Sequence record: PQ438391.1
Origin: Escherichia phage vB_Eco_T-01
Direction: 5' to 3' (one strand)
Length of the DNA: 64,000 nt
Shown: positions 21,968 to 23,972 of the stretch, piece after piece
Position numbering within the stretch: the stretch's first letter is position 1
Layout: the number at the start of each line of letters is the position of its first letter
Notes under the pieces: generated by a model
What the model was told of the DNA's origin: nothing
The model's database searches: none
What the model saw: the letters and a program-made list of their open reading frames with translations, nothing else
Position numbers and translations under genes: made by a program

Positions 21968-21995
21968 TTTACAAGCTGACGAGACTATGGTATAG
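21966..21995 (+). promoter_or_regulatory. T4-type early promoter upstream of dmd (GTTTAC ... TGGTATAGT)
   Basis: 18-bp spacer. Confidence 0.55.
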
Positions 21996-22025
21996 TAGTC
22001 TTGTTGGTTAAATGAGGAGATTGTT

Positions 22026-22208
22026 ATGGAATTGGTAAAGGTAGTTTTTATGGGGTGGTTTAAGAATGAAAGCATGTTTACTAAAGAAACCACAATGATG
22101 AAAGATGACGTTCAATGGGCTACTACTCAATATGCTGAAGTTAATAAAGCATTAGTTAAAGCTTTCATTGATGACAAGAAAGTATGTGAAGTGGATTGCC
22201 GAGGATAA
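22026..22208 (+). CDS. dmd: Dmd-like antitoxin (inhibitor of host RnlA/LsoA toxins)
   Basis: 60-aa ORF immediately after gene 41 and an early promoter; length and position match T4 dmd. Confidence 0.7.
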   Translation: MELVKVVFMGWFKNESMFTKETTMMKDDVQWATTQYAEVNKALVKAFIDDKKVCEVDCRG

Positions 22209-22209
22209 T

Positions 22210-22467
22210 ATGCATATTGTTTTATTTAAACCTACTCCGTATAGCGTCAGGAAAAATACGCAATTCAAGGCACTTATTGCGGATACGTGGGAATTGGTGT
22301 TAGATATTCCAGCAGAAGAAAGTCCTCCATTTGGTCGAGTGGAATTTATTAAGTTTGCTGTGCGCCCTACGAAGCGACAGATTCGTCAATGCAAAAGATA
22401 CTTTCGTAAAATCGTCAAGTTAGAGAAACAGTTTGTAACATGTGATTATGCAGAAGTTTTAAAATAA
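22210..22467 (+). CDS. hypothetical protein at the 61.4 position
   Basis: 85-aa ORF with GAGGATAAT RBS. Confidence 0.5.
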   Translation: MHIVLFKPTPYSVRKNTQFKALIADTWELVLDIPAEESPPFGRVEFIKFAVRPTKRQIRQCKRYFRKIVKLEKQFVTCDYAEVLK

Positions 22468-22469
22468 CT

Positions 22470-22499
22470 GTTTACTTTTGTTGGAAATTGAGATACTAT
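22470..22499 (+). promoter_or_regulatory. T4-type early promoter upstream of sp (GTTTAC ... TACTAT)
   Basis: 18-bp spacer. Confidence 0.5.
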
Positions 22500-22527
22500 A
22501 TAAACATAAACTACTGAGGAGATTATC

Positions 22528-22821
22528 ATGAAAAAATTTGTTTTTGCTGCAATTTTTGCTTTAGCTTCTTGTGCTGCTCAGCCTGCTATGGCAGGTTATG
22601 ATAAAGATTTGTGTGAATGGTCTATGACTGCGGATCAGACTGAGGTTGAAACTCAGATTGAAGCAGATATTATGAATATCGTTGAGCGTGATCGCCCTGA
22701 AATGAAAGCTGAAGTACAAAAACAGCTTAAGTCTGGTGGTGTAATGCAGTATAATTATGTTTTGTATTGCGATAAAAACTTTAATAACAAAAATATCATC
22801 GCTGAAGTGGTAGGTGAATAA
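22528..22821 (+). CDS. sp: Spackle-like periplasmic protein (superinfection exclusion / lysozyme inhibitor)
   Basis: 97-aa ORF with cleavable signal peptide MKKFVFAAIFALASCAAQPAMA; own early promoter. Confidence 0.65.
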   Translation: MKKFVFAAIFALASCAAQPAMAGYDKDLCEWSMTADQTEVETQIEADIMNIVERDRPEMKAEVQKQLKSGGVMQYNYVLYCDKNFNNKNIIAEVVGE

Positions 22822-23447
22822 TGCTCTATCAAATGCACAAGTGCAAAGATACATACAAATATAAAGGTGCCCAGTGTTATATCATTAATCGTGAAAACGC
22901 GGGTCCAGGTCATTCGCATCAATCACGGTTTGTATTCGTTAAAAACAATGAAATTATAGCAGTTGCTAATTACATGCTTGTGACTAATGATGTTAATCCG
23001 GTGCCTTTTACATATTATAATCTAATGGATTTGGCGTACGATTATAATTGGTTTAATCATGACACTTTGGCTCATATCGAAGGCGTAGGATTTGACATCT
23101 CTTATTCTAGTTATTCGTTGTGTCCTATGAGCCGAGCTCATAAAGAGCCTGAATATTTTTCATTTCGTCGGCGTGTAGACTTTAAACGCAGTACAGAGTA
23201 TGTCGGTGGAATCTTTGTTAAAGATAATCGAATTACTCGCATTATTTATCCTTTGGGCTGTGGTCAAAAAGATATTGACGTTGATTTAGACTTTACTGAA
23301 AACATCATTAATCATATTGCTTCTGTGTATTTTGATATTGATCACAAAATTGTAATATGTGGATATGAATTACCATCAGAAAAACAGTCTAAAGTAAATG
23401 TTTCTATTGATGACCAAATTTTTAATGCTTTTATGAATAAAGGTTAA
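22821..23447 (+). CDS. hypothetical protein at the 61.2 position
   Basis: 208-aa ORF; its last 14 codons lie inside a 49-bp direct repeat. Confidence 0.5.
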   Translation: MLYQMHKCKDTYKYKGAQCYIINRENAGPGHSHQSRFVFVKNNEIIAVANYMLVTNDVNPVPFTYYNLMDLAYDYNWFNHDTLAHIEGVGFDISYSSYSLCPMSRAHKEPEYFSFRRRVDFKRSTEYVGGIFVKDNRITRIIYPLGCGQKDIDVDLDFTENIINHIASVYFDIDHKIVICGYELPSEKQSKVNVSIDDQIFNAFMNKG

Positions 23448-23451
23448 TATG
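23403..23451 (+). repeat. 49-bp direct repeat, copy 1 (3' end of the 208-aa ORF)
   Basis: TCTATTGATGACCAAATTTTTAATGCTTTTATGAATAAAGGTTAATATG; 48/49 identical to copy 2. Confidence 0.85.
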
Positions 23452-23477
23452 TATAGTTCTGAATTTTCATATTTAAA

Positions 23478-23804
23478 ATGGAAAAAATTTCATACGATTT
23501 TATAGATGAAAAGGTTTATTACAGCTTCCATGAACCGTGTTTTAATAGTGAGGTTGGGTTTATTGTAGTAAAAGACAATTTCATTTTAAAAATATATTCA
23601 GCATTAAAGGATTTTCATTACGAAAATATTAACCTAAAATTTAATAAAGAAAACGTTCGTAATTGCGCAGTAACAATTACAGGAAATAAAGGTACATGTG
23701 TTATGTTATCTGATGAAATTAATGATTTGCTAAATGATGCAGAAAATATTACTGCGCCATCTATTGATGACCAAATTTTTAATGCTTTTATGAATAGAGG
23801 TTAA
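23478..23804 (+). CDS. hypothetical protein with no counterpart recalled in T4, bracketed by a 49-bp direct repeat
   Basis: 108-aa ORF; C-terminal SIDDQIFNAFMNRG matches the C-terminus of the preceding 208-aa ORF because both ends fall in the repeat. Confidence 0.5.
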   Translation: MEKISYDFIDEKVYYSFHEPCFNSEVGFIVVKDNFILKIYSALKDFHYENINLKFNKENVRNCAVTITGNKGTCVMLSDEINDLLNDAENITAPSIDDQIFNAFMNRG

Positions 23805-23808
23805 TATG
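23760..23808 (+). repeat. 49-bp direct repeat, copy 2 (3' end of the 108-aa ORF and start of the 54-aa ORF)
   Basis: Same sequence with a single A/G difference; copies are 357 bp apart. Confidence 0.85.
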
Positions 23809-23970
23809 AAAACATATAAAGAATTTATCAAAGAAGATATGGTCGCTGGAGATTCAGGTGGTAATCCTGAAAATATCTCTACTGGAACAACGTCAGGCGC
23901 TGTAGTAAATAAAGGTCCTGAACAGATTCCTAAAAAGAAAAAAGAGGAATCTAAAGAAAAAGAAGAGTAA
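23806..23970 (+). CDS. hypothetical small acidic/basic protein at the 61.1 position
   Basis: 54-aa ORF whose ATG lies in the second repeat copy; ends 2 nt before gene 61. Confidence 0.45.
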   Translation: MKTYKEFIKEDMVAGDSGGNPENISTGTTSGAVVNKGPEQIPKKKKEESKEKEE

Positions 23971-23972
23971 AA

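Follow-up and report, generated by a model that had tools for sequence, protein, structure and literature searches.

A 49-bp repeat in a T-even anti-TA island reads as a conserved protein tail and coupling junction common to adfA and a small neighboring gene

The DNA analyzed here is a 64,000-nt stretch of Escherichia phage vB_Eco_T-01 (PQ438391.1), hereafter the window, to which all positions refer. The phage is a Tequatrovirus, and positions 21968–23972 of the window, between the genes for the replicative helicase (41) and the primase (61), are the T-even "anti-TA island", as the literature names this region of counter-defense against toxin–antitoxin (TA) systems. Inside the island, a 49-bp direct repeat surrounds an extra gene, here called the mini gene, which lies between adfA and 61.1. 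On sequence comparison, the repeat exists as a conserved protein tail plus a translational-coupling junction common to the two neighboring genes, and the extra gene is a member of the RB32ORF033c / PHROG 4122 family, whose proteins normally have 118 amino acids (aa). We consider it highly probable that the locus as a whole is explained by these elements together: an anti-TA island, a mini gene of the RB32ORF033c family, a repeat made of tail and junction, exchange between the repeat copies, and an ancestral tandem of adfA and the mini gene.

The repeat, TCTATTGATGACCAAATTTTTAATGCTTTTATGAATA[A/G]AGGTTAATATG, occurs twice with a spacing of 357 nt, and 48 of its 49 positions are identical, as described in the initial annotation of this DNA. 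Each copy is composed of 14 terminal codons (SIDDQIFNAFMN[K/R]G), a Shine–Dalgarno sequence inside the Arg-Gly codons, the stop codon TAA and the ATG of the next gene (Table 1). The 208-aa open reading frame (ORF) of adfA and the 108-aa ORF of the mini gene therefore end, as had also been recognized, in the same 14 residues and the same TAATATG stop/start junction. The next-best direct repeats in 4.5 kb reach at most 22 nt at 73–89% identity, which places the 49-bp repeat far beyond chance. Furthermore, the identity is sharply bounded in otherwise unrelated DNA, since the 49-nt blocks adjoining the repeat, with the two genes aligned backwards, match at only 12–16 of 49 positions, which is the random level, and the downstream 49 nt match at 12 of 49.

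A pattern scan found no coding-strand promoter-like sites and no terminator-like sites on either copy. Folding of the repeat gave z-scores between −0.96 and +1.47, none of them significant, and RNA structure is ruled out on these values as the cause of its conservation. By eye, the repeat holds a MotA-box-like TGCTTT followed by TAATAT, a resemblance on which we do not rely.

Proteins of at least four types close with this tail and junction, each of them encoded in the slot that immediately follows spackle. These are full-length AdfA of 208–216 aa, including the RB69 type (loci L006 and L010); a 145-aa protein of more distant T4-like phages (L003, L004, L007, L012, and L013; gp038 of VR25); the mini protein, with 118 aa in Tequatrovirus and 116–125 aa in VR25 gp037 and in P0022–P0030; and a 120-aa protein (P0032) from a 173-kb T4-like metagenomic phage. 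Twelve distinct DNA variants of the tail contain 12 synonymous codon variants and 6 conservative non-synonymous ones, the latter all at the edges, and the core DDQIFNAFM is invariant among them. Because synonymous variants dominate and the core does not change, purifying selection on the tail peptide appears well supported. Searched exhaustively by profile, 1.84 billion representatives yielded six clusters and no relatives outside the small T4-like group, so we propose no bacterial origin for the module. The initial annotation had seen the common tail, while its conservation, a possible paralogy of the gene bodies and the 5′ frameshift behind the 108-aa reading had been overlooked.

The extra gene had been put forward as a candidate new accessory gene. 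It is instead RB32ORF033c, present in about 300 records including T2, and it carries a precomputed Pfam AdfA label. The RB32 annotation lists it as a 118-aa protein "similar to gp61.2" whose start is the ATG of repeat copy 1, and the five protein clusters of the family all have this length. Residues 1–108 of the window ORF fall on positions 11–118 of the PHROG 4122 profile in a full-length match, and over residues 11–118 the protein is 94–97% identical to P0001–P0003. Its position between adfA (or sp) and 61.1 is likewise that of the family. At the DNA level, the extra segment matches 298 phage records, and 332 are reached by tblastn. No mention of RB32ORF033c was found in the searchable literature. 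The mini protein P0022 is assigned by NCBI to a metagenome-assembled genome of Limosilactobacillus reuteri, probably a mis-binned coliphage contig.

The window allele differs from the rest of the family by a private 1-nt deletion in an A-run, which none of the 291 other records covering the site has; the 118-aa frame is intact in all of them. Owing to this deletion, the ATG at 23449 opens only 18 codons and the family frame is regained at Met11 (23478), a start preceded by no Shine–Dalgarno sequence. The claim that every ORF of the island has its own ribosome-binding site thus fails for the 108-aa ORF; the repeat ATG is the start of the gene in 291 of 291 other records. Since the deletion uncouples the mini gene from its start codon, the window allele is probably weakly expressed, hypomorphic or null. 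Within TAT TTA AAA TGG, the heptamer T TTA AAA fits the X XXY YYZ register, and we speculate that a −1 slip there would restore exactly the 118-aa protein.

The 108-aa form could also be a homopolymer miscall, in which case the phage would really encode the 118-aa gene. We regard this as unlikely, though by no means negligible; in favor of a miscall, a single base in an A5 run is concerned and the change is unique among 291 records. In a 24-kb comparison with the closest relative (~96% identity), the window has two isolated, uncompensated homopolymer indels inside ORFs, at 23475 and 25148. Both hit small dispensable ORFs, and the large essential genes are free of such indels, a distribution that random error does not predict; for this reason, we favor a real deletion over a chance error of sequencing. 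The indel at 25148 is a 1-nt deletion (T6 to T5) that shortens a minus-strand ORF at 24998–25123, between genes 61 and 56, to 41 aa. This antisense ORF has 66 aa in PinkRuby and in RB32 (RB32ORF030w).

Three natural states of the slot have their breakpoints on the tail/junction element: adfA only (T4), adfA followed by the mini gene (the window), and the mini gene only (T2). A tail scan of IMG/VR gave 13 loci, too few for a census, and the numbers given here were obtained by BLAST with junction-specific queries. The adfA body is present in 486 records, the mini body at an identity of at least 60% in 298, diverged Gaprivervirus-type mini homologues in 34, a contiguous adfA–mini junction (tandem) in 157, and a contiguous sp–mini junction (mini only) in 144, all counted as database records that include duplicate RefSeq and GenBank entries. 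T4 (NC_000866) has the identical order 41, dmd, 61.4, sp, 61.2, 61.1, 61. As the initial annotation had indicated, it has no extra gene, and it keeps a single copy of the repeat, in the AGA (Arg) variant. T4 and the window are collinear but for one 357-bp indel, and the alignment blocks overlap on the 49-nt sequence, which places the repeat exactly at the indel breakpoints.

The mini gene is present in T2, RB14, RB32, and RB51, and the mini-only group includes T2, sb2, and BCPSen_003. T2 has been described as having no adfA homologue (PMC11257639). It has an intact 118-aa mini gene, which GenBank labels "61.2" and calls from an internal ATG at 108 aa. In the T2 record (L019, LC348380; 1787–2450), spackle carries an additional A close to its 3′ end, which results in a 92-aa sp.

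In mini-only genomes, TAGAGGTTAATATG, which makes up the final 14 nt of the repeat, stands before the mini gene, and the last 13–14 nt of adfA are thereby kept. The junction of sb2 reads ATG AGA GGT TAG, which is the adfA start followed by the last two adfA codons and a stop; this is as expected, because an in-frame deletion of adfA codons 2–206 would yield it. Tandem loci carry adfA alleles of about 98%, 80%, and 72% identity. In the Gaprivervirus VR25, a 43–47%-identical mini homologue occupies the same slot, in tandem 3′ of the tail-bearing 145-aa protein. In view of the Gaprivervirus homologues, the three adfA classes found in tandem and the adfA remnant at the mini-only junction, the tandem is the probable ancestral state of Tequatrovirus, and T4 and T2 would be derived by loss of one gene each. 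T4 would have lost the mini gene by recombination between the 49-bp copies, and the loss in T2-type phages would be that of the adfA body.

Besides the duplicates among the counted records, two points weigh against this order of events. The direction, loss in T4 or gain in the window lineage, is unprovable, given that homologous recombination in mixed infections moves the indel either way. In addition, the 14 nt at the junction look like a general coupling design that dmd–tifA (CGAGGATAATATG) has as well, so the reading as an adfA remnant is not unique. The Lys/Arg site was considered as a test of deletion versus insertion and abandoned, both models predicting Arg next to 61.1.

The initial annotation had taken the repeat for the footprint of an inserted module. 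On this model, a T4-like backbone recently gained a novel accessory gene by short-homology recombination. The window does have exactly one extra 357-bp segment relative to T4, with ends overlapping the repeat; the 14-nt junction flanks the mini gene in mini-only genomes as well, and a single unequal crossover between a T4-type and a T2-type phage could make the tandem. Still, a recent gain is improbable. The gene is found in about 300 records, T2, RB14, RB32, and RB51 among them; the 43–47%-identical Gaprivervirus homologues sit in the same slot, there too 3′ of a tail-bearing gene; and the tandem occurs with adfA alleles of all three identity classes. Moreover, the sampled tandem loci, including the divergent L014, all have Lys in the internal copy, which points to one old origin. 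In the comparison with T4 and its relatives that had been suggested as a check, the gene is absent from T4; it is already in about 300 T4-like records and is not a new insertion. The Gaprivervirus homologues, the three adfA classes and the retained 13–14 nt of adfA make an ancestral tandem likelier than an inserted module.

We next consider how the mini body relates to AdfA. With the tail included, profile–profile comparison of the two gives E = 3e-11, and the mini protein scores 31.3 bits against Pfam AdfA (cut-off 27). In the diverged mini proteins P0022 and P0030, AdfA scores of 23–26 bits come from the last 17–19 residues, that is, from the tail alone. The Pfam "AdfA" label, which vanishes without the tail, was dropped as a proof of homology. 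Without the tail, BLASTP of mini against AdfA gives E = 0.012, a score reached by 72 of 2000 shuffles. In hhalign with tails removed, mini aligns with the N-terminal half of AdfA at P = 0.0024 and with the C-terminal half at P = 0.0048, at probabilities of 7–12%, and the two AdfA halves align with each other at P = 4e-4 and a probability of 36%. The tail-less alignments, that of the two AdfA halves included, all center on a G.I.VKDN.I hairpin motif, and the exhaustive profile search aligns mini 27–117 with AdfA 124–210.

In the AlphaFold models of both proteins, four strands and a subsequent helix keep the register of the alignment, and a tail helix closes the chain. A Foldseek search of the mini model against BFVD returned weak top matches to T4-like proteins of 118, 157, 145, and 212 aa. 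For AdfA, neither a known fold nor a relative of solved structure was recognized: a PDB sequence search returned nothing, and a Foldseek search of the PDB gave no hit below E = 0.08. At 108 aa here and 116–125 aa in relatives, the mini protein is not two-module as is AdfA (~208–216 aa), and it aligns to one AdfA half. Taken together, mini shares with AdfA (T4 gp61.2, PF23813) the slot, the 14-residue tail, the junction, the G.I.VKDN.I motif and a similar predicted order of four strands and helix. In contrast, it is half the size, with one module instead of two, loses the Pfam match without its tail, and has Cys at the residue aligned with His164, in a weak alignment.

These comparisons suggest, with reasonable confidence, that the mini body is a single-module relative of the two-module AdfA, in which the module would be repeated twice; membership in the AdfA family is not proven. 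Three results count against the relationship: after removal of the 14 tail residues, mini has no Pfam AdfA hit at E ≤ 10; the hhalign probabilities for mini and AdfA without the tail are only 5–12%; and the two AlphaFold models are of low confidence, with pLDDT values of 71 and 59.

Substitution patterns indicate that the mini family is under purifying selection. The ratio of non-synonymous to synonymous substitution rates (dN/dS) is 0.14–0.32 in the mini body and 0.06–0.24 in adfA, and mini is conserved at 37–47% identity across genera with invariant motif residues. It is hardly likely that a partial duplication of adfA left the mini gene behind as a decaying fragment with no function. Such decay would fit the 5′ frameshift in the window and a 3′ frameshift in ESh36, as well as T4 doing without the gene and a T2 ΔadfN mutant being DarTG1-sensitive despite its mini gene. 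What speaks against it, apart from the body dN/dS and the conservation across genera, is the 118-aa frame kept in 291 of 291 other records and the 144 records in which mini is the sole tail-bearing gene in the slot.

As for what the mini protein does, it is possible, although we would not call it probable, that it is a small toxin-binding inhibitor with a specificity unlike that of AdfA, the common C-terminal helix serving a shared function. By analogy with the DarT1-binding AdfA, it would inhibit a toxin by binding, and its target would differ. The DarTG1 sensitivity of T2 ΔadfN, a phage with an intact mini gene and no adfA, weighs indirectly against protection from DarTG1 by the mini protein (PMC11257639). 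However, this result does not discriminate, since T4 ΔadfN is equally DarTG1-sensitive despite a full "neutralizing" AdfA (PMC11257639).

Within a genome, maintenance of the near-perfect tail DNA identity by recombination or gene conversion between the copies appears well supported. The tails of the paralogues have no synonymous difference, although the bodies are at random-level DNA identity. By comparison, three synonymous codons separate the RB69-type AdfA tail (L006, L010) from that of the T4 type. In L014, both copies carry a synonymous GAT not seen in the window, and in VR25 an N-to-K change is present in both tails. Among the sampled loci, the copy adjoining 61.1 has AGA (Arg) irrespective of the gene that it closes, and AAA (Lys) is found in the internal one; searches with chimeric junctions, from which the exceptions were obtained, found only 3 and 2 departures from this pattern. 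Lys/Lys tandems occur in PinkRuby and vB_Eco_CP, Arg/Arg tandems in APTC-EC-2A and ESh36, and a mini-only locus with Lys in Manna. In vB_Eco_CP (L021, OZ034683, ~1216–1333), 59 bp at the 3′ end of the mini gene are duplicated in tandem, which has given a third tail/junction copy just before 61.1. The existence of Lys/Lys loci, Arg/Arg loci and a three-copy variant argues for exchange between copies, and these natural variants agree with the earlier expectation that the repeats can drive rearrangement.

That the repeat is a mere by-product of a constraint on the C-terminal peptide and of a common coupling signal, with no role for recombination, is very improbable: it would account for tail amino acids conserved across genera with synonymous variation and for the RG-TAA-TATG design found also at dmd–tifA, but it leaves unexplained the zero synonymous differences between body-unrelated paralogues when the RB69-type tail has three from the T4 type, the converted Lys/Lys and Arg/Arg loci, the three-copy variant, and a T4 indel bounded exactly by the repeat. 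We propose instead that purifying selection keeps the amino acids of the tail, that recombination or gene conversion between copies would keep its DNA near-identical within a genome, and that the tail/junction element would act as a joint where genes drop out, or perhaps enter, in frame. The single A-to-G difference between the copies alters the downstream Shine–Dalgarno sequence (AAAGG versus AGAGG), and the internal variant may tune translation of the mini gene.

Two of the variant loci have further peculiarities. The third tail copy of vB_Eco_CP is out of frame with the junction ATG (which opens MCCTFY and a stop), and may be real or an assembly artifact. In ESh36 (L024, ON528746, marked UNVERIFIED; ~1620–1669), a 1-nt deletion (GAAAAGG to GAAAGG) removes the tail from the mini protein, and the tail codons persist out of frame.

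The repeat is reminiscent of PeSL cassettes, which bracket shuffled modules in T4-type phages (PMC2839356). Both are short conserved sequences around dispensable genes in plastic regions, located at the breakpoints of insertions, deletions or replacements. In contrast to PeSLs, which are non-coding units of promoter and terminator, the window element is a coding tail with a translational-coupling junction. Being coding, and with no coding-strand promoter-like site, terminator-like site or significant RNA structure on either copy, it falls outside the definition of a PeSL, which calls for a strong σ70-like early promoter and a stem-loop terminator.

A second parallel is the amplification of dmd–tifA in T4, which was selected in the laboratory and involved flanking homologies of 2–10 bp or similarly short (PMC9391042). 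Short-homology amplification and deletion in T4 is also the subject of the rII and Hp17 studies, as cited in PMC9391042. The island is the same, and in both cases recombination between short direct repeats alters gene content or copy number. Here, by contrast, the repeat around the mini gene is natural and 49 bp long, and its products are found as standing variation in nature.

The remainder of the island is that of T4. Its genes follow the order dmd, tifA (61.4), sp, adfA (61.2), mini gene, 61.1, and ORF calling confirms the six ORFs of 60, 85, 97, 208, 108, and 54 aa between genes 41 and 61, with the lengths and positions first given (Table 1). The identification of the first three as dmd, 61.4, and spackle is upheld by Pfam, Dmd, TifA and Spackle being full-length matches to their family profiles and arranged as in T4. 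The proposed link of the interval to counter-defense against TA systems also agrees with published work, in which Dmd acts against RnlA, TifA (61.4) against ToxN, and AdfA (61.2) against DarT (PMC9391042).

Table 1. Features of the anti-TA island and its flanks in the window (PQ438391.1)
Feature	Coordinates	Strand	Evidence or remark
Gene 41, replicative helicase, left flank	20540..21967	+	475-aa ORF; collinear with T4 gene 41
Early-promoter-like TTTACA-17-TATAGT upstream of dmd	21968..21996	+	10/12 match with TG
dmd (61.5), inhibitor of RnlA/LsoA toxins	22026..22208	+	Pfam Dmd, 153.5 bits, full length
tifA (61.4), 85 aa, ToxN inhibitor	22210..22467	+	Pfam DUF7279, 72.7 bits; PHROG 2375; T4 61.4 position and length; name from PMC9391042
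sp (spackle, 61.3), periplasmic protein	22528..22821	+	Pfam T4_Spackle, 152.5 bits
adfA (61.2), 208 aa, anti-DarT factor A, tail ending FMNKG	22821..23447	+	Pfam AdfA, 452.8 bits, full length
Repeat copy 1 (internal): last 14 adfA codons (Lys, AAA at 23439-23441), TAA, ATG normally starting the mini gene	23403..23451	+	
18-codon remnant ORF (MYSSEFSYLKWKKFHTIL, then stop) opened by the normal mini start	23449..23505	+	
A-run with private 1-nt deletion (A5 to A4)	23475..23478	+	Relative to RB32, PinkRuby and all 291 spanning records
Mini gene read from internal Met11, 108 aa	23478..23804	+	PHROG 4122, 219.5 bits; no Shine–Dalgarno upstream
Repeat copy 2 (adjoins 61.1): last 14 mini codons (Arg, AGA), TAA, 61.1 ATG	23760..23808	+	Identical to the T4 single copy
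61.1, 54 aa	23806..23970	+	PHROG 1823; T4 annotation
Gene 61, primase, right flank	23973..25001	+	342-aa ORF; T4 annotation

The 208-aa ORF is, judged by its sequence, a full-length AdfA with the His of the DarT1-neutralizing allele. It scores far above the 27-bit cut-off of AdfA (PF23813), with residues 1–208 on model positions 1–211, and sits between spackle and 61.1 inside the gene 41–61 interval. Its His165 (in INHIAS) occupies the position equivalent to the neutralizing H164, where the RB69-like P0020 has Arg. DarT1 is bound by AdfA when residue 164 is His, the H164/R164 rule (PMC11257639). The adfA alleles are mosaic. The first ~55 residues (~55 N-terminal codons, window 22821–22990) diverge strongly between the classes of about 98%, 80%, and 72% overall identity, whereas the C-terminal half hardly varies, a pattern suggestive of a recombination breakpoint inside the gene or of a hypervariable region of specificity.

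In T4, dmd–tifA is driven by an early promoter (PMC9391042). Two early promoters had been claimed for the present interval. A promoter scan found 12 sites versus 10.7 expected from shuffles, a total not above chance, and the TTTACA-17-TATAGT upstream of dmd is the only clearly supported promoter-like site. The tifA start overlaps the dmd stop within CGAGGATAATATG. This junction (CGA GGA TAA TATG, after CRG and stop; 22196–22212) resembles the tail junction (AGA GGT TAA TATG, after NRG and stop; compared with 23436–23451), and an Arg-Gly-stop design with an embedded Shine–Dalgarno sequence, as judged from these sequences, recurs within the island.

Some related loci differ elsewhere in the island. 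The mini-only locus L015 (IMGVR_UViG_2938479101_000006) has ~390 nt extra between tifA and sp (reverse-complement ~1480–1870). This segment contains an ~84-aa ORF (MMLVNREYQFKSEEDLEKF...) after TTTACAAGCTGA...TATAGTA, which is near-identical to the promoter-like sequence upstream of dmd (21968–21996), and it looks like a promoter-led cassette insertion. In the more distant T4-like phages L003, L004, L007, L012, L013, and L018 (VR25 gp036), a second 61.4/TifA-like paralogue lies directly 3′ of the tail-bearing gene, besides the one adjacent to dmd.

Much of this is already known: the island and AdfA are published, the extra gene has stood in GenBank as hypothetical since the RB32 record, and the finding is largely explained by known biology. 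Modestly new are the constant-tail/variable-body family, the three-state polymorphism and the overlooked mini gene in "adfA-less" phages. A broader interpretation, which we offer tentatively and consider doubtful as a whole, is that small anti-toxin proteins belonging to a "constant-tail, variable-body" family fill the slot after spackle. In such a family, the DDQIFNAFM helix and the junction would form a functional anchor and an in-frame recombination joint for swapping, stacking and dropping bodies, and the mini protein would inhibit a toxin other than the tested DarT1. If this is true, AdfA, the 145-aa type, mini, and the 120-aa type would be such bodies, and T2-like "adfA-less" phages would carry a cryptic family member.

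In the DarTG literature, T2 and several further T-even phages count as adfA-less, yet these phages carry a tail-sharing, probably single-module relative in the same slot. T4 (adfA only), T2 (mini only), and the ~157 tandem phages form a natural allelic series for both proteins and for their common tail. The tail/junction element may be regarded as a coding counterpart of PeSL, and as an example of how T-even counter-defense genes may be gained, lost and homogenized.

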